From the NCBI GenBank assembly GCA_019056805.1, contig DXJG01000013.1, forward strand, positions 1-32,000: a stretch of DNA of 32,000 nucleotides, in the 5' to 3' direction. The notes under the pieces were generated by a model that was not told the DNA's origin, did no database searches, and worked only from the letters and a program-made list of their open reading frames with translations. A program made the translations under genes and the position numbers. Source of the DNA: Candidatus Baldrarchaeota archaeon (GTDB taxonomy: Archaea; Asgardarchaeota; Baldrarchaeia; Baldrarchaeales; DXJG01). Shown here piece by piece: positions 5,997-29,240 of the stretch; positions within the stretch are counted from its first letter, which is position 1, and each line of letters begins with the position of its first letter.

Positions 5997-6428
5997 ATGG
6001 AAGTCGGTTTTCCTACAATTAAATCGAGAAAATTAACTATCGTAAATCACATACCGATAAGTAAAACACTAAAATTCTGGGAAGGGCTAAAAGAAGGTAA
6101 AATCTACACAACCAAGTGCAAAAAATGTGGCACAATATTCTTTCCACCAGCTGGAGACTGTTCAAAATGTTATTCTTCAGACATGGAATGGATTGAGTTA
6201 AGCAATGAAGCAGAAATCGAAACATTTACTCATATCTTAGTTAGACCTGCTACGTTCCAACACTATGAACCTTACACTGTTGCAATTGGAAGATTGAAAG
6301 AGGGAGTCAAAGTACTTGCTTGGCTGACCGGCGCAAAGTTATCAGAGATCAAGGTGGGAATGAAGGTTAAATTGGTTGCCAAAGTTACACCGGAAGGAGA
6401 GCCAACTTACGAGTTCCAGCCAATCTAA
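5997..6428 (+). CDS. DUF35 Zn-ribbon/OB-fold thiolase partner
   Basis: KCKKCG..FFPP..DCSKC Zn ribbon followed by an OB-fold region; the GGTGA RBS overlaps the thiolase stop and favours ATG 5997. Confidence 0.9.
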   Translation: MEVGFPTIKSRKLTIVNHIPISKTLKFWEGLKEGKIYTTKCKKCGTIFFPPAGDCSKCYSSDMEWIELSNEAEIETFTHILVRPATFQHYEPYTVAIGRLKEGVKVLAWLTGAKLSEIKVGMKVKLVAKVTPEGEPTYEFQPI

Positions 6429-11836: not shown

Positions 11837-12169
11837 TACTCTTCACCTTCCCAGTAACATTGGCAGAAGTTAGTGAACCCCTTACATTCAAGCAAACCAC
11901 AAGGTATCAACTTAAACAAAAGAGAGCTACTGAGTGCCTCATCACTCTATATCACTAATTCATACTCCATGAGTCACCTTATTTGTAAACAAGTTTTTAT
12001 TAAGCTTTTAAGTAACCTATTGTTCACATAATAATTTTTTAAGTGTTTCGCTTCAAAAATTTAGATTTACTAACCTTTTTTCGTTTAAAAAGACGTAAAA
12101 AAACTGTTTTCAATTTCAATAACCCATTTCAAAAATAAAGATTAAAAAGAAAGCATTTGTCTATTTCTT

Positions 12170-12784
12170 TTAAACAACGGAAGTAATACCTGTTTCTTCT
12201 ATCGTTGCAGTTGCGTGGACAACCCCACCAACGTTATGCTCCGTGAGAAATATTGTTTTTCCCTTTTCAGCTTTACAATATATATCAATGTATAGTTTGT
12301 ATGTTATGCCTTTTTGTAAAGTTACTGGTTCATCGAATCTTATTAAAATCGGTAAGGTTCTATTTGAAGTTATAAGTAGATTTCCTTCTTCATCGTATGC
12401 ATTTATGTTTCTTGCATATAAATGAAGAGCTCTATAGGTACCCTCAGCAACGAAAAGATCATCGTAACCTTTAACAAATTCAAGACCATTAGCACTTAAA
12501 TTCAACGATATACTTACATCCTGAGCCACGACAGCCTGCCCTGGTACATTTGAATGTTCACCCTCTCCTGCTGGTATCCAAACGAATCTCACAACTTCCA
12601 TCAGAATGTAACTGTAATTTAACTGTACAGGATGTCCAGGTGGCGGTGGATCAATAAAATACACATCCACAACTGCTGCTCCAGCAATATAACCTTGAAT
12701 ATTTGATCCATAATATGTCCACGTTAAACCTAATGCCAATACTGCGAACAATACAGCTATTATAGTTCTCTCTTTTCGATTCAA
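12170..12784 (-). CDS. N-terminally anchored secreted protein, DUF4382-like
   Basis: Basic N-terminus + hydrophobic helix, then IDPP, beta-rich body, GTY..LHL and L.IDI resembling DUF4382; TTG start after GGGGTGA. Confidence 0.5.
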   Translation of the reverse strand: MNRKERTIIAVLFAVLALGLTWTYYGSNIQGYIAGAAVVDVYFIDPPPPGHPVQLNYSYILMEVVRFVWIPAGEGEHSNVPGQAVVAQDVSISLNLSANGLEFVKGYDDLFVAEGTYRALHLYARNINAYDEEGNLLITSNRTLPILIRFDEPVTLQKGITYKLYIDIYCKAEKGKTIFLTEHNVGGVVHATATIEETGITSVV

Positions 12785-12915
12785 TTGTTTTCACCCCAAA
12801 ACTTTAAATTTAACTTGATACAATTATGTTAAAATGAAAATATAATCTTTTAGTTACACTTTTATCGAAATCTAACATTCGACCCCAATCGAAGTACACA
12901 GGAAGGCCTCCTAAA

Positions 12916-13766
12916 ATGTCAAAGAAAAACAAAGATGAATCGATTATATTTGAAGCAGCATCACACCCAGCTAGAAGAAAAATAATAAAATTAATCGGAG
13001 AAAAAGGAGGCGTCACATATAAAGATTTATCAAAACTCGGAATAGAAACCGGAACACTCTACTTCCATTTAAATTCCCTCATGAGCAAACCATATCCAAT
13101 AATTCAACGAGACGAAAAGAAAAGATATATCTTAACACCTTTAGGAGAACTAACCTACAAATTAATAACAGAAACCGAAGACAAAATCGCATGGATCACA
13201 ACTAAAGAAACCTCAAAAACATCTAAACTACCCGCAAATATAGGAAAACCCTAGGATTTAAACAAATTTTACAAACAATATATAAAACACCAAAAAGCTA
13301 TATTCCCAATGCAATAACACTCTCAACACTATATGGCATCACCTCATTTTATTCAGAACAAACACCCTTAATCTTACTGATACTTCCCCGTAAATTGCCT
13401 TTGCTACAAACAATAGCCTTGGCAATACTCTCTTGGCTTACAATATTCGGCATTTCCGAAATGCTCTCCAGAGGAATCTATAAAAAAACGGAGAATACAA
13501 CCAAACTCTTAGTAGGGTCAACCATTCCATTAATACCTCCCACAATAAGTATGGGACTAAACATCCTAGTCAAATCTTTTAACCTCCGATTTTTCCCAAG
13601 AACAACATTAGCTATATCAATATTCTTCCTTTTCTCAGAAGTATGGTCACTATGGACATTAACATACACGATAGGCTTAGCAAAAGACCTAAAACCTACC
13701 AAAGCAGCACTAATAGCACTAATAATAGGATACATAAATTTAACATTGCTACAACTCCTTAAATGA
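12916..13766 (+). pseudogene. ArsR-like wHTH + multi-TM membrane protein split by a -1 frameshift near 13231
   Basis: The wHTH ORF (SHPARRKII..TLYFHL..YILTPLG) stops at 13254. The membrane-domain frame is open from 13227 to 13766. One extra base joins them into 283 aa. Confidence 0.65.
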
Positions 13767-14004
13767 CAGTAGAAATACGAAAAGGGTGAGAAAAAGACTT
13801 AAATCTGATAGAGTAATACTTTTTCTAAATTCAGTAATACTAATCTGGTGCCATGTAATGACTAAAATAACTATGATTGGTTATTAATTTAGACTATCTA
13901 TTTTGAAGCTGTTAAAAAATGAATGAAGTTACATAAAATTTCATTACTAAAATCAGTGTTTTTATAGTATGAAGATTATTCTCTAAAAATGGAGAGATAT
14001 TTAT

Positions 14005-14529
14005 ATGGATGAGAAAGAGCTTAAGAGATTTGTAAAACCTTACTATGAGTCTAAAGATATTATGCACAATTTTTCTCACGTTTTAAGAATATTGCGAGAA
14101 GCTGAAAAACTTGCTAAAAACTACGATATTGGCAAAGAACTTTTAACGTATGGAGCATATTTGCATGGAGTAGTGCCTAAACATGAAGAAGCAGCGAGAC
14201 AATTTCTTAAAAAGCAGGGTTTGTCTGAGCAGAGAATCAACCAAATTATCCAAGTCGCATGGGAATCGCATAAAGAAGTTGAACCACAGCCCATTGAAGG
14301 AAAAATTCTACACGATGCGCATCTAATTGAAGGAGGAAAAACCTTCATGATCGTAAAATCTCTAATAACAGGAGCACTACGAGGACAAACCCTACAAGAA
14401 ACAATAAAATACATCGAAAATAATCTGCTAGGCAAATTTCACTGCTATTTGCCAGAAGCAAAAAAGCTCTACAAGGAAAAAGAAATTTTTGCACGAGAAT
14501 TCCTAAAAGAATTAAAGAAGCATCTTTGA
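14005..14529 (+). CDS. HD-domain-like protein with variant metal motif
   Basis: MHNFSHVLR, YLHG, LHDAHLIE occur in HD-like spacing. Confidence 0.65.
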   Translation: MDEKELKRFVKPYYESKDIMHNFSHVLRILREAEKLAKNYDIGKELLTYGAYLHGVVPKHEEAARQFLKKQGLSEQRINQIIQVAWESHKEVEPQPIEGKILHDAHLIEGGKTFMIVKSLITGALRGQTLQETIKYIENNLLGKFHCYLPEAKKLYKEKEIFAREFLKELKKHL

Positions 14530-14615
14530 ATCTTATTTTCAGTTGTTTGCTCTAGATTGTAGTACATTATTATTTAAATTGTTCAGTTTTAGTATTTTAG
14601 TGCTGGTGAGTTGAA

Positions 14616-15587
14616 ATGATGAAGGAGGTTATCAATTTCTACATTGATGAGATGAAAGACTCGACATTATACAAAGCTTTAGCAAAGATTGAAAAAGATG
14701 AGGACATAAAAAAAGAGTTGTTGAAGCTATCTTCAATGGAGAAGGGTCACGCAGATTTTTGGAAAACATTTCTCCTAAGTAGAGGAGTTAAAGTTAAAGA
14801 ATACAAACCCAGTTTCATTATAGGGTTATATAGGGTTCTTCGGAAAATTTTTGGTCTTGCTTTTACCTCAAAAGTTATGGAAATGGGTGAAGCGAAAGCA
14901 ATTAGAAAATACTATGAATTTTACCAGAAAGCTGATATATCTGAAGAAGAAAAGAAGCAAATAGAGAAAATAATCGAAGACGAACTGTTACATGAAGATG
15001 TTTTCCATAAAATGAGTAGTAGCGAAAAAATAGAACATATACGAGATGTTTTCCTCGGAATGAACGATGGCCTCGTAGAGATACTGGCAACAGTTGCAGG
15101 ACTAACTGGAGCATACAGCGGAAACCCCTACATTGTAGGAATTATAGGGAGCATAGTAGGTATTTCAGGTATGCTTTCAATGGTTATAGGAACTTACATA
15201 TCTGTAAAGAATCAAAGACAGGTAAAAGAACAGAAAATATTTGAGAATAGGGTTTTACATGAACTTTTAAACCAAAAAATGGGTATAGAAGAGACTTTAG
15301 AGAATCCTTTAAAAGCTGCATATTATACAGGGCTCTTCTATCTTCTCGGAACAATCCTAACAGTATTCCCCTTCTTCCTAGGGTTAAACAGCACATCCGC
15401 TCTTTTAACATCCGCTACTGCAGCTATCATTGCATGGATTATTTCAGGTTTCATAGTAGCGTTAACCAGCGGCTTAAGTGCCACAAGAAAGATATTAGAA
15501 ATGCTTATAACAGGCCTAGGAGCTGCGACCATAACCTACACAATAGGTTCGCTTATATCATCTATCTTAGGAATAAGCCTCCTATAA
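14616..15587 (+). CDS. rubrerythrin-like domain + VIT1/CCC1 iron exporter
   Basis: E..D..LY, E..H (EKGH, ELLH) di-iron motifs, then RDVFLGMNDGLVE VIT1 signature and TM helices. Confidence 0.9.
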   Translation: MMKEVINFYIDEMKDSTLYKALAKIEKDEDIKKELLKLSSMEKGHADFWKTFLLSRGVKVKEYKPSFIIGLYRVLRKIFGLAFTSKVMEMGEAKAIRKYYEFYQKADISEEEKKQIEKIIEDELLHEDVFHKMSSSEKIEHIRDVFLGMNDGLVEILATVAGLTGAYSGNPYIVGIIGSIVGISGMLSMVIGTYISVKNQRQVKEQKIFENRVLHELLNQKMGIEETLENPLKAAYYTGLFYLLGTILTVFPFFLGLNSTSALLTSATAAIIAWIISGFIVALTSGLSATRKILEMLITGLGAATITYTIGSLISSILGISLL

Positions 15588-15784
15588 CAAGTATCAAACT
15601 CATCTAACAATTTCCACAACCATTTATATTTAAATATTTGTGTAAAATAGTGTTTTAAAGCTAATATTGCATTTTTAGAAATCTTAAAAATCAGTTAATT
15701 CTATCAAAGGTAAATAGTTATAATTATCATTGTAATATATAGTCATAGACTTTGAATAGTTTAATATCAATTGGAGCTGGTTAA

Positions 15785-16531
15785 ATGTCTAGTGTTTCTA
15801 CCCTTTTATTATCTTTAAAAAAGAACAAAGCAACCTTAACAGAGTTAAAAGAAGCTTTTAACCGCAGTATTGACATGATTAGCCGAGACCTAGATTCGTT
15901 AACTGAGCGATTAGAACGGTTAAAAAATAAACTCGAAGAAAGACAAAGCATCGAAGAAGAAAAAGAAAAAACAGTATCAGAATTAGAAGCCGCCGTTTCT
16001 AATTTAGAAAGAGAAAAAACACAAACAGAAACCAAGCTTTCAACACTTAAAGAAACCGAATCCCAGCTCAATGAACAACTAAAGGAACTAGAAAGCGAAT
16101 TAATCAAAGTTCAAGATAATATAACCAAAATGAAAGATAGTATTTCCAAGCTTACCCAAGCTTGCAAAGAAAAAGAAGATGAAATCACCAGATTAGAAAA
16201 GCAAATTGAGGACATAAAGAAAGAACATGATAAGGCTATAGCTTCTTTAAGATCATCATACGAAAAAGAATCAAATAGACTAAACGAATTAAAAGCAAAA
16301 TATTCTGCCCTGAAATTTTTGATAAAGAAAAACATTTTGGAAATACCAGAACTCAAAGTAATTCAAGTAATAAAAGATCAAAAAACTACAACCATCAGCT
16401 TCATAGAGAAAAGCACCTCACTAAAAACATCATTCATTCAACACGTTGTTAAAGGATTAGCTGACAGAGGAGTTATAGAATATAATGCAAGTACAGGCGA
16501 AATAAAGACTTTGAGAGAAATTGAAATTTAA
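15785..16531 (+). CDS. long coiled-coil protein with C-terminal winged helix (paralog A)
   Basis: About 170 aa of E/K/L heptads, then IPELKVIQVI..TISFIEK..VVKGLADRGVIEYNASTGEIK. Confidence 0.8.
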   Translation: MSSVSTLLLSLKKNKATLTELKEAFNRSIDMISRDLDSLTERLERLKNKLEERQSIEEEKEKTVSELEAAVSNLEREKTQTETKLSTLKETESQLNEQLKELESELIKVQDNITKMKDSISKLTQACKEKEDEITRLEKQIEDIKKEHDKAIASLRSSYEKESNRLNELKAKYSALKFLIKKNILEIPELKVIQVIKDQKTTTISFIEKSTSLKTSFIQHVVKGLADRGVIEYNASTGEIKTLREIEI

Positions 16532-16553
16532 TTTAAGAATGGAGGTTCCAATA

Positions 16554-17288
16554 ATGTCTGAAACATCTGGTATTAGGGATTTACTGAAAAAGATTGAAGA
16601 AGAAACATCAGGATTTAAAGAATCTATCGTTTCTAAACTCGAATCAATAATTGAAGAAGTAAAAATATCAAATAAAGCAGTAGAGGATGTTGAAAAAGAA
16701 ATAGAAACTACTGAAACTCGAATCAAAAAATATGATGAGCAAATTACTGAATTAAAAGAGAAGAAATCCAATCTCGAACAAGCAGTTAAAAATCTTAAAG
16801 CAAATGTTGAAGAGACGAATAATAAAATAATAGAACTTAAAGACAAAATATCTAATATCAAAACTAAGCTGGAAGAAGCAAATGAAGAACTTGCACAATT
16901 AAAGAACGAAAACGAAAAGAAAAAAGAAGAATTAGAAGAATTAAATGAAAAAGTAAGGCAACTTGAAGAAGAAGTTACCCGTATTAAGAAAGCTAATGAG
17001 GAAGAATTCGCAGAAAAAAGTACTGGCCTCAACAAAATAAGAGAAGAGCTAAGTAGTTTAGTAAAAGAAAATGCTGTAGTCGACTTCATATTAGCTGAGG
17101 GAAGTTACACCACCCCAGAAGTAGAAATTCTTACAATACTATTTCAAACAAAAGTATCAAGCATAGAAGAAATAAAAAGAGGAGTTAAAGTTCCCCCAGT
17201 AATGACCGTAAGAACCATAAAGAAACTAGCTGAAATGAAAATCTTAAGCTACGACGAATCAACAGGACAAATAAAACTTCTACTTTAA
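16554..17288 (+). CDS. long coiled-coil protein with C-terminal winged helix (paralog B)
   Basis: Heptad coil, then TPEVEILTIL..SIEEIKR..TIKKLAEMKILSYDESTGQIK. Start moved to ATG 16554 after GGAGGT. Confidence 0.8.
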   Translation: MSETSGIRDLLKKIEEETSGFKESIVSKLESIIEEVKISNKAVEDVEKEIETTETRIKKYDEQITELKEKKSNLEQAVKNLKANVEETNNKIIELKDKISNIKTKLEEANEELAQLKNENEKKKEELEELNEKVRQLEEEVTRIKKANEEEFAEKSTGLNKIREELSSLVKENAVVDFILAEGSYTTPEVEILTILFQTKVSSIEEIKRGVKVPPVMTVRTIKKLAEMKILSYDESTGQIKLLL

Positions 17289-17537
17289 CAAACAACACAG
17301 AATTTACCTCTTCAACGCGAACAACCGTTAACCTCAACTTTTTATTCTACATTTATTATCCTTTAAACGAGTAAAATGAGTCGTCATCAATACTTTCTTA
17401 TTTTTTAGTTAGAGGATATCTACTTTTATTATGGGACATCTGTCGTTATAGCTCTTGTTTGGATTGAGTGGAGCTAAAATTTGGTTTCACCTTACGTGGC
17501 AGATTCGTAGCAATATTTAGTAACATCGGGTTATAGT

Positions 17538-17553
17538 GAATAAAATTTATATA
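17538..17553 (+). promoter_or_regulatory. BRE/TATA promoter of the surface-protein gene
   Basis: GAATAAAA followed by TTTATATA at 17546-17553, about 47 nt before TTG 17600. Confidence 0.55.
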
Positions 17554-17599
17554 TATTCCAACGACTAAAAGAGCCTAAATTGCTGGTTGAGGGAAGGTT

Positions 17600-20500
17600 T
17601 TGAAAACAAACAAAAGCCATATAATTATTGCTTTGTTGATTGCTATTTTGCTTCTATCTTCGGCGCTTCCCATATTGTCAGTGTCATCTCAACTTATCCT
17701 AAAAAATTGACTAATAGTAACGTATCAACACCGTTCAAAACGTTCGGTTCAACCAGCTCCGTGGAACACGTTTCTTTTAGAAATGTAACTTTTACTGATA
17801 TCGTAACAATAGGCAACAACTCTATCGTAAGAATTACAGACTCTAACATAACTTCAGATACCATATATGTCTATGATTGCGCAGAGCTCATATTGGAGAA
17901 TGTAAGTGCACCGTATGGTACAACCATAAAGCTATACGACAATACAACCCTGATACTTAAAAACTCTAACATAAGCGTGCCTTACATGTACTTTTACGTT
18001 TATGACCACGCCAAAATTTACATCATAAACAGTTTTCTAAATAAATCAAACATATATGCAAATGACTTTTCTGAAACATACATCTACAATGCAGCAATAA
18101 ACTATATGTATTTCCACGATAATTCTACAGCCTATTTAACGAATGTCACACTTTACTTCCATACCTACCTTTATGATAACAGTAGCATAACCGTGGAACA
18201 CGCAACGTTCGACGGATACTGGTATTTCCGTGACAACAGTAGTGGAATTTTGTGTAACGTAGCCGGAACTAGTGTCGCAGATATACGCCTATATGATTAT
18301 TCTAACGTCATCATAGAGAACTCTACCCTTGATGATCTTTCATTAATAGGCTACTCAACAGTCACTATAATTAACTGTGTTCTCAATGATATCTACATTA
18401 ACCAGGCTGATCAGTCCTATTATCATTATGGCGGGTATCGTAGTGTACCACATATTTACAATTCTACATTCGATATTTTACGGTGTTATAGCGAACTTAA
18501 AACCTATCTGACAAACGTCAGAGGAAACACTGTTTGCCGCGGTTTCATAATAGAGGGTACTGGAAACGTTAGCGGGAGTACGGTGTACATGTCTTCTGGA
18601 ACATTCGAATACAATGTTGTAAATGATACTTCTTCAAGAATAACAGATTTCAACAATGCAACATACTTCACGTTTAAAAACTCTAATTTCCATATGGAAA
18701 ACATTGCAGCAGAAAGAATTGCAGCATATAACTCTTGTCTTCAAATACATGGTGGAGCTATAACCGTAAGAACCTACGGATACAACTCTACGTTCAACAT
18801 TTATGGAACTACTCTTCCATATTACGTGGAATTTGAAAAAAGTACAGCAGTTTTAAATGCAACAACTGGATGCATAGAACTGTTAGTTGAGTATAGTAAT
18901 ATCACTGCTGTTAACTCAACAAGTTTTTTGGGTCTACGTATAAAACATTCAGCCTTGTTAATAGTTAATTCAACTGTTTTTCTTTTCGCATACAATAATA
19001 GTCAGGTGTACTTTGATTTTTCAGGAGCAGAAGGCATATTTGCCTACGATTACTCGAAAATCTACATCAACTCTTCTTCTACAGGGTTAATGTGTTCAGA
19101 TAACGCTTATGTATCTGTGTTTAACTCGACTGTTTACACCACTTTACTTCAAGGAAACAGCACTGTTTATGCAGATAAAACAAAGTTCATATGCGAAATT
19201 AGTGTTTGGGATAACGCTAACATTACAGTTATAAATTCAAATATATCCGAAAGCTATTCAACAATAGTTACACTGACGAATAATAGTTATGCGTTGTTCA
19301 AAAACGTGAGATTCACAAGTACTGATTGTGATGCAATTATTCAAGCAAACGACAGTTCAGAAGTAATTTTTGAAAATGTGTTTATCGAGGCGGACGGTGA
19401 CTATTTTGAATTTACATTATGGGGTAACGCTCAACTTAAAATTATAAACTCGAAGATAAACACTACTTCAACCATTCTGGGAATCGGCTTGGTTCTTGAC
19501 AACGCTATGGTTTACATAAATGTTACCCAGATCTTTAGAGATACTTCGACTCTCTCCATAGAGTTACGAAATACTACTACTTTAACTACGTTTAACGTAA
19601 GTTCTTTTGCTGTTCTTCTTTGTGATTCAGCTAAATCTTTCATGTATAACAGTAATGTTACAAGGATAGTTGCCATGGAACATGCTTACTTTGAAGCTAT
19701 TAGCAGACGTGGTTTCGACAGTTCGACTACCATTGAAATGTATGATAATTCCGTTGGAAAAATTGTAAACCACAGCATATATTCACTTTACCAGAGTGAA
19801 TTAACTCAATTTTACCTAGAAAACGTTTATGCGAACTTTTCTGGCAGTTTCATTTACTTAGAGGAACAAGCTAGGTTGACAGCGTTAAACCTAACTGCAG
19901 CGGGAATCACCACAGATTTCTTAGTTAATCTATCAAACATGGGCTACGTTAATCTCACAAATTCAAAAATCGGGAAAATAACAGAAGAAATATCAATATA
20001 TCACTACGGTAACACAACTATCAATGGAAAACGATACATTGCTGAAGCTACAGTTGACATATTTAATCACACAATCTTGCAACGCACGACCGTAAATGAA
20101 AAGGAAAGTGCACTGAACATTGAAGAGTTCATCAATGCTGTTATCGGAAACATCACATACACACACGTCTCAGTAAAGCGTCTAGTTGACACCCAGGCAC
20201 CAATAGTATCTGTAACTCCTCCTTCAACGGAATTTGAAAAAGGAATGATAGTAGAAGACATGAAATGGACAATATTGGAAGAACATCCAGACGTCTATGA
20301 ACTGGAGAAAAACGGCACAATAATTATGAACGGTACATATAATAGTGGAGAAGCAATCTCACTAAATATTTCTGCTTTTGATCCAGGGTTCTGGACATTA
20401 AAACTTACAGCTAAAGATAGAGCTGGATATAGTACAACTATATTGTCAAATGTTACGGTTTATCCAAGTGAACCTCCGATATTCACAGTCAAACCACCAA

Positions 20501-20838
20501 GAACATACGAGATGACTGAAGGAAGCACTGGAAACATTCTTAACTGGACTGCAACAGACCGATTCCCAGCAAACTATGAAATCTACGTTGACAATGAATT
20601 AAAAGCAGCAGGAACTTGGACAAGTGGCGTAAAAATAGAATATAACATTGACAATTTAACCGAAGGGAACCACGCAGTAAAAATAGTAGTTTACGACCTT
20701 GCAGGAAACTCCGCTGAAGACACGGTTTCAGTCATTGTAAAACCCGCTGTAGGCTTTCCATGGACATATATTCCCATAATTGTTGGAGTAACCGCTACTG
20801 CAGTGATCATAGTTATCGTCATCAAGAAGCATAAATAA
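17600..20838 (+). CDS. large cell-surface protein: signal peptide (out of frame), beta-helix repeats, two Ig-like domains, C-terminal TM anchor
   Basis: TTG 17600 after GAGGG encodes MKTNKSHIIIALLIAILLLSSALPILSVSS, then stops at 17710. The -1 frame holds YDNS-type repeats, Ig domains from about 20188 and 20464, and TM FPWTYIPIIVGVTATAVIIVIVI-KKHK. Confidence 0.8.
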
Positions 20839-20884
20839 ACTAAACCCCTTTTTATTTTGTTTTGAAGATACCTAGAAACTCTAA

Positions 20885-23332
20885 TTATTCCATATTTTGA
20901 AGTGTTGATTTCTTTATTTCTGGAATATATCTTTTCATCAGCAGTGACCATGAAGTTACTGAAACTGAGCTCATTGCCATGGCTATTCCAGCTAACGCTG
21001 GGTATAAAAGGCCCGCTACTGCAACCGGAATTAAAACAGTGTTGTAGACAAATGCCCAAAAGAGGTTTTGCTTTACCTGCCTAATTGTTCTCTTACTAAG
21101 TTGAATAGCTGCTACAACATCTCTCAAGTCATCTCTAACCAAAATAATGTCTCCAGCTTCAATCGCGATATCTGTTCCACTCCCTATAGCAAATCCTACA
21201 TCAGCTTGAGTTAAAGCTGGAGCATCATTCACACCGTCTCCAACCATACCAACAATGTAACCTTCTTTCTGAAGCTTCTTTAACTCTTTAGCCTTGTCAC
21301 CAGGTAAAACGTTTGCTAACACTCTATCAATACCAAGTTGGGCAGCAATTGCTTTAGCTGTTCTTTCATTATCTCCAGTTATCATCCCAATCTTTACTTT
21401 CATCTTTCTGAGTTCTTCTAATGCTATTTTCGCCTCTCTTCTAGGAACATCCATGATTCCTATTAAACCTATTATCTCATTGTTCACCGAAACACCTACA
21501 ACTGTTTTTCCTTGTTTCATTAGTTTTTCAGCTTCTTTTTCAGCTCCATTGAATTTAACTCCTTTCTCCTTCAACAATCTCATACTTCCAACCAATATTT
21601 CCAAACCGTTGTATATCGCTTTAACTCCTTTTCCAGGAATAGATATAAAGTCCTCCGGATCTTCAATTTTCAAATCCTCTCTTAATGCTTTTTCGACAAT
21701 AGCTTTAGCAAGAGGATGCTCTGAATTCTTTTCAGCTATTGCAGCTAATCTAAGAGCTTCTTTCCCTAAATCTCCATTTCCATCAGCTAACACCTCAACC
21801 GGCTTTAAACCAACTACATCCGTAACTTCTGGACTACCTTTGGTCAGTGTGCCTGTTTTATCGAAAACAACGATATCTAGTTTTCCAGCCAGTTCTAATG
21901 CTTCCCCACTTTTAATCAAAATTCCATACTCAGCTCCTTTACCCATTCCAACCATTATGGCAGTTGGGGTAGCTAATCCTAGGGCACATGGACATGCCAC
22001 AACTAGAACAGCAACCATATTCAATATGGCCCTTGCTGCTCCAATGTGAAACCCAAAATACCACAGTACGAAAGTTAAGATTGAGATTGATATAACTGTA
22101 AAGGTGAAATATCCCGCTACCTTATCAACTATTTTTTGAATTGGTGGTTTCATACTTATAGCTTCTTCAACAAGCTTAACTACTTGAGCTAAGAAAGTAT
22201 CACTTCCAACTTTTGTAGCTCTAATCTTTAAAACTCCTTCTCTATTTACTGTTCCACCTATAACCTCATCTCCAGGTTTTTTCTCAACTGGAATGGATTC
22301 TCCCGTAACCATCGATTCATCCACAGCAGAGTGACCTTCTATAACTACTCCATCTGTAGCTATTTTTTCTCCTGGTCTAACAATCATTATATCTCCTACT
22401 TGTATTAATTCAGCTGGTATTTCCTCTTCAACACCATCTTTTAGAAGTCTTGCTCTTTTCGGCCTTATTTCTAAAAGTTTTTTGATAACAGCAGATGTTT
22501 TGCCTTTAGTTTTAGTTTCTAGATATTTTCCAAGTAGCACAAATGAAATGACTATTGCTGAACTATCGTAGTAGATGTTTCTCCACACAGGTGTGGGGAA
22601 AGTATACCACGCGCTTAAGAGGAATGCAGCTGTTGTACCAATTGAAACTAATGTGTCCATGTTTGCTGTTTTCATTTTAGCTGCCCTAAAAGCTCCTTGA
22701 TAAAATCTCCAGCCAACACCAAACTGAACTGTTGCTGTTAAAACAAATATAAGGTATCCTGCTAGAGGTGTTCCAGCTAAGGGGAGAAAGCTAAATATTT
22801 CTGGATAAGCATAAAGAACCACTGGAACCGATAGGATTAAGCCTATAATGGCTAGGCGTTTTAATTTTTTAGCTTCAATTTCTTCAACAGATAATGCAAA
22901 TTCTTCATGAATAACATCTAACCCGTAATCGGTAATAATTTTCTTTATATCGCTAAGAGAAATTAAAGCAGGATTATACTCTAAAAACACTTGACCGTTC
23001 ACATAATTAACAGAAACATTTCTTACTCCCTCAACTTTCCTAAGGGCTTCTTCTAGCTTGTTAGCATCAATTTGATCTCTTAAACCTCCCACTTGAATCG
23101 TAACTTTTTCATATACAACATAATAACCAGTCTCTTCAATAGCTTCTTCAATTTTCTTAAGATCGACCTTTTTTGGGTCAAAAACTACCGTAGCTTTTTC
23201 CGATGCAAAACTAACCTCTGCTTTTTCAACGCCATACAGGTTTTTTAAATTCTTTTCTATTGTTAAAGCACATCCAGCACAATGCATACCTCCTATTTTC
23301 AAGGAAATTATCCTTTTTTCTTCCTCAGACAT
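20885..23332 (-). CDS. copA: Cu(I)-exporting P1B-type ATPase
   Basis: [38 protein letters not shown] and MAMSS of P1B-1 ATPases. Confidence 0.95.
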
Positions 23333-27622: not shown

Positions 27623-27862
27623 ATGGCTCGGACAATTGCTATTTCTGATGAAGTGTATGAGATGTTAAAGAAGTTGAAGTTACCAGGAGAAAGTTTTAGC
27701 GATGTTATTAAAAGGTTGATAAAGCGTGGCGGACGTCTTTCTGATATTGCTGGCTCTGGAACTGTAACGAAAGAAGGGTGGGAAGAACTGAAGAAGTTGA
27801 GAGAAAAGAGGGAAAGATTAGATGAGGAAAGGAAAAAGATGTTAATGGAAACTTTACGGTGA
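27623..27862 (+). CDS. vapB: VapB-type antitoxin (DUF217/COG1753-like)
   Basis: RTIAISDEVYEML..LKLPGESFSDVIKRL; directly upstream of a PIN gene; ATG after GAGGTG. Confidence 0.88.
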   Translation: MARTIAISDEVYEMLKKLKLPGESFSDVIKRLIKRGGRLSDIAGSGTVTKEGWEELKKLREKRERLDEERKKMLMETLR

Positions 27863-27867
27863 TAAAA

Positions 27868-28278
27868 ATGTACCTATTTGACACTGATTTCATTATTAAT
27901 TTGGTAAGAGGGGACAAGAGTGCTGTAAGGTTTGCAAAGAAAGTTGATGAAGAAATGGCCTTTCGTGCAATATCGGTTGTTTCTGCACATGAATACCTTC
28001 TGGGAGTCTATTTCTCTCATTGGAAAAATCCAGAAAGACTGTCAGAAATGCTTGTAAAAGCCGAATCAGAACTAATGAGATTTGAAATTATCCCATATAC
28101 CTATGAAATAGCGAAAAAATCAGCTGAAATAGACGCTCATCTAACAAAATCAGGTCAAACAATAAGTTTAGCAGATATAATAATTGCGGCAACAGCAATA
28201 GTTCACAATTTACAGCTCGTTACGAGAAATGTAAGACATTTCTCTCGAATTTCAAACTTAAAAATAAAAACTTACTAA
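27868..28278 (+). CDS. vapC: VapC PIN-domain ribonuclease toxin
   Basis: FDTDFII, SAHE, DIIIAATA, LVTRNVRHF. Confidence 0.92.
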   Translation: MYLFDTDFIINLVRGDKSAVRFAKKVDEEMAFRAISVVSAHEYLLGVYFSHWKNPERLSEMLVKAESELMRFEIIPYTYEIAKKSAEIDAHLTKSGQTISLADIIIAATAIVHNLQLVTRNVRHFSRISNLKIKTY

Positions 28279-28366
28279 CAAAACACATTTTCCAGATATA
28301 CATATATAACTGGACATTTTCGAGCGGATGTTTACTAACCTTGTATAGGAAATATTGGAACCAAAT

Positions 28367-29185
28367 TTATAGGAAACCTGCTGAAAAGCTTTTATTTTTT
28401 ATTGCAAACTTCTTAGCGCATGTAGATAGTAGTTTTCTCGTTCCCCCCGCTTCACTCACTACCTTTAACATCAAATCTACATCAATTATACGTGCACCCA
28501 TAATGGCAGTTATTCCTCTTTTAAAGAGAGGATCAGGGACAACAGATGCTGTTGGGCCTAACAATATGAATTCTCTTGCATTTTTACCTAGTTCTAAGAG
28601 TCTATCTAATGTTTTGTTTACAAGAGTGCTACCCGTAGCGATTACGACATCTGCCTCAGGTACAATATATTCTGCTGCAAAATCAGGAAGAATCTCCACG
28701 TTTTCCATTTTCAAGAGGTTTCTTTCAAGTACTATTAACTTATTGGTTTTTTCAAGAATAGAAGGAATAAGTGGCTTAAAAAGCCCAATCATAACAACCT
28801 CATCATCCTTTTCCACTAGATCAACGACGTCTACATTTAAGAAATTGTATTTATCCGCTTCTTTTTCAAACACTATGCTTGATGCTGCATTTAATGTAGC
28901 AACCCCGATAGATGCCTCCAAGAGATTCCAAGAAGATGCAAATTTAACTGCTTCCCTAAGCGACCTACCACTAATACTTCCTTTTATTGAGAGACATATT
29001 TCATGTAGAGATGTCACGGTTTCCTCAATAAGTGTATACGCGACTCCACCGTGTCCAGATGATAATTTTACCCCCGTGTATAGAAGTCCAATACGTACAT
29101 CCTCTAAAAGCACATTATCAAATAAGGAATCTCCCAGCTTCCTCAAAAGAAAATTCGCTATTTCTTCAACAATGGGTGTTAACAT
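28367..29185 (-). CDS. DUF364 family (putative heavy-metal chelation) protein
   Basis: RIGLLYTGV..G..GVA, ASIGVATLNA, MIGLF.P, VLER, ATGSTLVNKT, LGPTAS. Confidence 0.85.
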   Translation of the reverse strand: MLTPIVEEIANFLLRKLGDSLFDNVLLEDVRIGLLYTGVKLSSGHGGVAYTLIEETVTSLHEICLSIKGSISGRSLREAVKFASSWNLLEASIGVATLNAASSIVFEKEADKYNFLNVDVVDLVEKDDEVVMIGLFKPLIPSILEKTNKLIVLERNLLKMENVEILPDFAAEYIVPEADVVIATGSTLVNKTLDRLLELGKNAREFILLGPTASVVPDPLFKRGITAIMGARIIDVDLMLKVVSEAGGTRKLLSTCAKKFAIKNKSFSAGFL

Positions 29186-29240
29186 GACTTCCCCCTTATA
29201 ACTAATATTTACAGGTAATTTTCATTTAATCTAGGTTAAA

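Follow-up and report, generated by a model that had tools for sequence, protein, structure and literature searches.

How can a surface protein of about 1000 residues be exported when its signal peptide is encoded in one reading frame and the remainder of the protein in another? The question is raised by the first 32,000 nucleotides of contig DXJG01000013.1 (assembly GCA_019056805.1; hereafter the window) from a Candidatus Baldrarchaeota archaeon, where a short open reading frame (ORF) encoding a putative signal peptide stops at a run of six A residues (A6; 17701-17706) and a long ORF continues in the -1 frame to 20838. The genome (G000) is a metagenome-assembled genome (MAG) of 18 contigs and 1.92 Mb, 91% complete, with a GC content of 35%. 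The initial annotation proposed that recoding or an ON/OFF switch at this run controls surface display of the protein. Based on a comparison with orthologues, with contigs from other assemblies and with the remainder of the genome, we consider an ordinary single-base-deletion allele the most probable explanation.

The signal-peptide frame (S frame; forward strand, 17600-17710) comprises 36 codons ending at the stop TGA 17708-17710, is recognized by its homology to the N-termini of orthologues and translates as (M)KTNKSHIIIALLIAILLLSSALPILSVSSQLILKN followed by the stop. Its TTG start is preceded, 6 nt to the 5' side, by the Shine-Dalgarno (SD)-like GAGGG at 17589-17593 of the same strand, and GGAGG- or GAGG-like motifs are found upstream of many starts in G000. 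Read from the sequence, a TATA-like A/T-rich element, tttatatatatt (17546-17557, forward strand), lies ~45 nt upstream of the TTG and is a probable archaeal promoter; the sigma-70 promoter scan of the region uses a model that is not applicable to archaea. The last codons of the S frame are CTA (17699-17701), AAA (17702-17704), AAT (17705-17707) and TGA (17708-17710). Exactly six A residues form the run, and the heptamer A_AAA_AAT (17701-17707, forward strand) is in phase with the S frame and thus has the slippery X_XXY_YYZ form, with the 0-frame stop directly adjoining it. The frame given in the ORF track (17587-20838; L frame) is -1 relative to the S frame and corresponds to a gene call of 1083 aa, while the product of read-through at A6 would have 1079 residues. 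In all of these respects, from the GAGGG and TTG 17600 through the CTA AAA AAT TGA ending to the 1079-residue -1 frame, the description in the initial annotation was confirmed from the sequence. It had also noted that the ORF-track start at TTG 17587 has neither a ribosome-binding site nor a signal peptide, and this too holds: no SD sequence precedes it, and the first 38 codons are signal-peptide DNA read out of frame, contain no hydrophobic stretch and are modelled as disordered (predicted local distance difference test, pLDDT, about 26). Judged from the sequence and its relatives, the annotated start TTG 17587 is wrong; the gene is frame-broken, and its true start is TTG 17600.

Orthologues of the protein were found to be confined to this genus among the 441 genomes searched, and when the N-terminal 500 aa were compared with 400 genomes of the phylum, the only match was in G001. 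Four orthologues were compared, namely P0003 (1456 aa), P0004 (1446 aa), P0005 (1423 aa) and that of G001 (L002), which share 58%, 58%, 41% and 39% identity, respectively, with the window protein, the value for G001 being saturated. In G001, P0003 and P0004 a homologous signal peptide is in frame with the mature part; the N-terminus of P0003, which belongs to a cluster of 25 members mostly of 1455-1456 aa, reads MKKCKIHVIVFLLIGVLLLFPTFPIIP.., and the gene call for P0005 starts after the signal peptide with the homologous linker unbroken. When an X is placed at the break, the window gene aligns with P0003 without gaps over the first ~87 columns, and the EHVSF motif is found at residues 56-60 alike in P0003, P0004 and the window gene read through. 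Homology in the S frame extends up to ..SVSSQ and resumes in the L frame from ..PFKT. This two-sided homology, together with the S-frame stop and the restoration of the orthologue spacing by one added base, places the break within 17693-17710, where A6 is the sole run. Thus, the claim that the signal peptide is joined to the ~1000-aa protein only through a -1 shift is borne out by the homologous in-frame N-termini and the exact orthologue spacing.

The orthologues were also inspected for a conserved break and heptamer. None of the four is broken at this site, and the A run is absent at the homologous position (..SSETES.., ..SQTEQA..). A protein scan of JGI metagenome contigs for closer relatives gave no confirmed locus, and an exact-flank DNA pattern with A5-A8 gave 0 matches in JGI contigs; in both searches the records of the window genome itself were possibly not included. 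Separately, the G001 orthologue carries a break elsewhere, a ~16-nt deletion (L002:775-800, G001:C279; FA followed by NSTFDYM, as compared with FAKAEIYNSTFDYM in P0005). G001 is a 330-contig MAG with 9% contamination, and some of its breaks may be assembly faults.

In order to determine whether the A6 is present in the DNA, Logan contigs (assembled contigs, no raw reads) from four sequencing runs, X1-X4, were aligned over 12000-21500. The contigs of X1, the likely source run (17116-21500), and of X3, which stems from an independent study of a different year (2020) (17551-18192, depth 7.6), show 0 differences and 0 gaps relative to the window, and no indel is listed for X2 over the region. The same 1083-aa call from 17587 is found on two JGI/IMG contigs and on the NCBI/Logan contig, the calls differing only in how the TTG is rendered. 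No in-frame variant is present in the 90% protein cluster, and an A7 allele was found in no contig or protein cluster, although contigs drop minority alleles. The A6 break is real DNA. A homopolymer sequencing error, which the initial annotation had kept as an alternative, is now unlikely, as the independent X3 contig and the JGI assemblies all have A6. In X4, a contig of depth 19 begins exactly at 17711, the preceding bin having a depth of 3.8, and another contig diverges from the window after 17556 into sequence absent from G000. The pattern may point to a strain with a divergent promoter and signal-peptide region, or simply to fragmentation of the assembly.

We assign a probability of roughly 0.58 to the reading that the window gene is an ordinary lineage-specific single-base-deletion allele, off or strongly hypomorphic and possibly leaky, with no evolved recoding or switching device. 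The simplest event would be a one-base deletion in the A run, from a putative A7 ancestor to A6, by which CTA AAA AAA TTG would become CTA AAA AAT TGA just behind the signal peptide. Ribosomes starting at TTG 17600 would then yield a 36-residue signal peptide and stop, and the 1043-codon mature part would have no export signal of its own. Since the signal peptide would stop early and the mature part would lack such a signal, the allele is expected to be off or hypomorphic, with a full-length product that is probably scarce or absent. Such a product could be formed by three routes only: a rare -1 ribosomal slip on A_AAA_AAU, the addition of an A by RNA polymerase, or reversion to A7. The gene may accordingly be described as a young pseudogene or a null allele, maybe slightly leaky. 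The surface-protein family looks dispensable, since the G001 orthologue is broken elsewhere and the window gene is short of ~370 residues of its beta-helix. These ~370 aa are missing in frame at about 18950-18990 (P0002 residues ~455-468) and are present in P0003, P0004, P0005 and G001.

The break is not the only one of its kind. G000 holds at least three further confirmed breaks of the one-base-missing type and one likely, which also weakens the proposal that a dedicated device controls display of this particular protein. Detached signal peptides and homopolymer junctions were sought across the genome with a high level of noise, and the yield is a lower bound and not a census. The break most similar to that of the window gene was found by the scan for detached signal peptides on contig C15 (G000:C15:71993-73518, L015:1494-3019), where a detached signal peptide running from MFRRITITLLIVMLLFLSVSPLTGYCSSA... 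to ..MEPRLKN is followed by an S8 subtilase (PF00082) that resumes in the -1 frame from ..KKYEETSNYTWKIHPLDLEYL. Its orthologues P0007 and P0008 read ..AMESRLEAYEETHDWRLKVHPSDLEYL in a single frame, which places the break at the A6 run C15:72136-72141. The nonamer CTA_AAA_AAT has the same sequence and phase as that in the window gene, and the next codon is the rare ACG. The truncated subtilase call recurs on three JGI contigs. On contig C9 (83920-87557; L025:121-3758), a secreted subtilase of ~1200 aa with Ig-like domains and a C-terminal membrane anchor has a -1-type break in a G8 run (84850-84857) that separates the Asp motif (IGIIDTGID) from the His motif (HGAHVAG); G9 would restore one frame.

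The third confirmed break lies in the window itself, on the forward strand at 13227-13254, where a winged helix-turn-helix (wHTH) domain (12916-13254) is parted from a membrane domain (13227-13766) by a -1-type break, as judged from relatives and contigs. One base is missing in GGAAAACCC (13243-13251), an A4 site. The wHTH-membrane relatives are single frames of 283-341 aa, G001 reads ..SKTSKPLIMIGEILGFKQILQ.. in one frame, and the break region is identical in contigs of X1, X2 and X4. The second one-base loss suspected by the initial annotation near 13231 is therefore real, the relatives being single-frame and the contigs of three runs in agreement. The G001 wHTH-membrane orthologue was also observed to have a break. 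The likely case is a GNAT protein on contig C14 (C14:5863-6839; L021), apparently cytoplasmic, which looks split: of the Pfam domain, the long frame contains no more than the C-terminal half, and it is preceded by a 93-aa ORF in the other frame. Here, one base is probably missing in a T7 run at ~6121-6127.

Several observations weigh against a simple deletion allele. The L frame has 1043 stop-free codons in a genome of 35% GC, the signal-peptide ORF, the SD sequence and the TATA-like element are all intact, a relative-rate test is flat (85 vs 78 lineage-specific changes relative to P0003), and the sequon density is unchanged. This intactness and flat rate fit a very recent lesion and selection for leaky expression alike. 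In addition, all five breaks are of the -1 type, and the CTA_AAA_AAT context is found in only 3 of 316 A7 runs of long ORFs, so that the match between the window gene and the C15 subtilase would be a ~1% coincidence under random deletion. Contigs are, moreover, unable to reveal minority A7 alleles.

The observations on intactness and on the C15 subtilase are those expected from recoding of the type described for fucA1, the alpha-L-fucosidase gene of Saccharolobus (Sulfolobus) solfataricus P2 (SSO11867/SSO3060), in which -1 frameshifting takes place at A-AAA-AAT with an efficiency of 5-10% (5% in E. coli and about 10% with S. solfataricus ribosomes; PMC1616953). The initial annotation was factually right in citing this site. 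According to this explanation, some ribosomes slip by -1 on CUA_AAA_AAU (tandem or P-site slippage), maybe aided by a slow UGA, and give a low and relevant amount of exported full-length product, and frameshift mutations would persist solely in genes with such a leak. The heptamer matches that of fucA1 exactly and is abutted by the 0-frame stop, and the break in fucA1 is likewise a strain-specific A-run indel with full-length orthologues (PMC8211752). The weightiest point in its favour is that the same in-phase nonamer is also the site of the break in the C15 subtilase gene; a rare codon follows it there. By itself, however, the heptamer match carries little weight, since it arises from every A7-to-A6 deletion in that phase and ordinary long ORFs contain 166 in-phase copies.

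Run statistics based on synonymous shuffling of the 780 G000 ORFs of at least 300 codons bear on both sides of this explanation. In-phase A_AAA_AAA is avoided, with an observed/expected ratio (O/E) of 0.35 as compared with 0.87 for the same A7 in phase 0. That the avoidance depends on phase points to selection against slippage of the ribosome rather than of the DNA at Lys-codon runs, and suggests that such runs do slip on the ribosomes of this organism. In contrast, in-phase A_AAA_AAT is not avoided (166 observed vs 167 expected), which implies a low intrinsic slip rate. A6/T6 runs number 4009 in the genome, A6 has an O/E of 1.03-1.16 in all phases and A8 or longer of 0.04, and avoidance begins at A7-A8. 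Because neither A6 runs nor in-phase A_AAA_AAT are avoided in G000, slippage at these sites is probably rare. A downstream stimulator was likewise not found: the RNA fold of 17708-17800 (93 nt) has an energy of -14.1 kcal/mol, as compared with a shuffle mean of -14.0 (z -0.03; pseudoknots were not searched), a fold spanning the site has a z of -0.64 relative to shuffles, and the first downstream stem is weak and begins 22 nt past the site. The break is conserved in no orthologue, and other breaks in the genome are found at the non-canonical site GGAAAACCC and in the apparently cytoplasmic GNAT protein. Taken together, we regard fucA1-like recoding as doubtful, and the proposal that CUA_AAA_AAU is a working low-efficiency -1 site that throttles both the beta-helix surface protein and the C15 S8 subtilase is put forward only tentatively.

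The comparison with fucA1 itself shows likeness in the identical A_AAA_AAT, in the short upstream ORF before a long -1 ORF, in the AT-rich archaeal genome, and in the limitation of the break to few strains, with other orthologues full length and the A run differing by one base. However, the two ORFs of fucA1 overlap by 40 nt, and its site is flanked by rare CAC codons and has a putative stem-loop, whereas in the window gene the stop directly adjoins the heptamer and no structure is predicted. The upstream ORF is here a signal peptide only, and the fucA1 product has been demonstrated by mass spectrometry, western blot and in-vitro translation, whereas a full-length product of the window gene is hypothetical. 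The site also resembles those of bacterial programmed -1 frameshifting (dnaX, IS elements, A_AAA_AAG; PMC8211752) in its Lys-codon X_XXY_YYZ form and its start-less -1 ORF. Those sites differ in that they are conserved across species, have stimulators (SD-like and stem-loop) 5-9 nt downstream and yield two useful products at a fixed ratio; the window site shares none of these features.

Less probable still is phase variation, in which slippage during replication would switch the A run reversibly between A6 (off) and A7 (on), with the G8 run of the large C9 subtilase as a second switch. The position of the run, a 5' poly-A tract just past the signal peptide of a surface protein, is suggestive, and homopolymers are the site of the break in three genes for secreted or surface proteins, in one case a G8 of classical length. 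The initial annotation referred to poly-A length changes that switch surface proteins, and inlA of Listeria monocytogenes provides such a precedent, with A7 in frame, A6 off and a reversion rate of 5.5e-7 (Orsi et al. 2010, PMC2831843). A passage of the same paper also reports poly(A) tracts to be enriched at gene 5' ends in 18 archaeal genomes (PMC2831843). As in inlA, the gene is a surface gene with an A7/A6 tract near its 5' end, and the A6 allele ends translation after few codons, a natural, recurrent and potentially reversible null. In Listeria, however, strains show both alleles and reversion has been measured, whereas only A6 is seen here, both in the contigs that cover the run (X1 and X3, with no indel in X2) and in the three gene-called contigs, and the host is an uncultured archaeon. 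The A6 is short, one of 4009 runs and not avoided, which argues against a hypermutable tract, and since no A run is present at the site in orthologues, the tract is not maintained. The breaks in the wHTH gene, at an A4 site, and in the GNAT gene are also unlike a surface-antigen switch. The proposed control of surface display by recoding or by a switch is thus not supported: no orthologue is broken, no stimulator was found, A6 is not avoided and no A7 was seen.

An assembly or sequencing artefact, with A7 as the true sequence and an intact gene, is unlikely, and less probable than either recoding or phase variation. The genome is a MAG, every break found consists of one base missing in a run, and inspection was limited to contigs. 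However, the Logan contigs of X1 and X3, which stem from the likely source run and a different study, are identical at every base, and the JGI/IMG assemblies repeat the truncated calls both for the window gene and for the C15 subtilase. Nextera adapters are present in X4, which identifies the data as Illumina reads, and Illumina sequencing seldom errs at A6. Genome-wide, junction windows with A/T runs of at least 6 are not enriched (53 vs 73 expected). Finally, a bulge-helix-bulge intron of length 3n+1, whose splicing would join the two frames, is ruled out on length and fold, since one added base gives the exact orthologue length (EHVSF at 56-60) with no spare sequence and no significant structure is present in the region.

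The protein encoded by the L frame is consistent with a product that must be exported. The mature part (17707-20838, forward strand; ORF track from TTG 17587) comprises 1043 codons and the stop, with no internal stop. AlphaFold, run on a four-sequence alignment, gave a model with a mean pLDDT of 69, in which residues 61 to ~800 are all beta and mostly of pLDDT 80-95. This region is predicted with high confidence to be a right-handed beta-helix (solenoid) rich in N-x-S/T (17767-19986, forward strand), as also suggested by weak Foldseek matches to PL6 lyases, Ag43 and pertactin and by a Pfam match to PF13229 (Beta_helix) that is below threshold (20.0 bits vs a cut-off of 25.9). It is followed by two putative Ig/FN3-like beta-sandwich domains (20194-20739, forward strand; model residues ~870-1051), with sub-threshold matches to Big_13 and PKD, weak Foldseek matches to FN3/adhesin modules and many Asgard paralogues that match this part. 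At the C-terminus, a predicted transmembrane helix and a KKHK tail (20773-20826, forward strand; model helix 1063-1080) would form a membrane anchor. With a density of 46 N-x-S/T sequons per 1000 aa, the protein is predicted to be an N-glycosylated, membrane-anchored beta-helix surface protein.

For annotation, the consequence is a wrong N-terminus not only in this gene; in the same MAG the problem extends to at least three other confirmed frame-broken genes, the C15 subtilase among them, and probably to one more. An allele that is simply off would imply that this subsurface Asgard population can do without large glycosylated surface proteins and secreted proteases, and that both are in decay there. 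A leaky allele would add to fucA1 a second class of archaeal cellular genes that uses A_AAA_AAT, and would be the first such case among the Asgard archaea. A fucA1-like mechanism would then operate in the archaeal lineage closest to eukaryotes, and only at sites that permit ribosomal slippage would frameshifts be tolerated. The phase-dependent avoidance of A_AAA_AAA is a genome-internal hint that slippage on Lys runs matters to these ribosomes.

Other loci with adjoining or overlapping frames were also observed. The candidates L019 (TrmB), L020 (oxidoreductase and AAA), L022 (KaiC-like) and L023 (GT4) were rejected as breaks, as they look like separate genes or alternative starts. At 27859-29201 of the window, a 139-codon ORF with a tail that appears PIN/VapC-like by eye is followed, with a 150-nt overlap, by a 307-codon ORF in the -1 frame, which has no SD-preceded start within 75 nt. 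On contig C6 (G000:C6:66201-68134; L024), a start-less VWA ORF lies in the -1 frame behind a MoxR-type AAA+ ORF of 286 aa, the two sharing 49 nt at 67013-67061 (..GGTTTTTCAAAATTTTCAATAG). This MoxR AAA+/VWA pair (G000:C6:67013-67061) resembles the window gene in its start-less -1 ORF; the surface-protein break is unique to one lineage.

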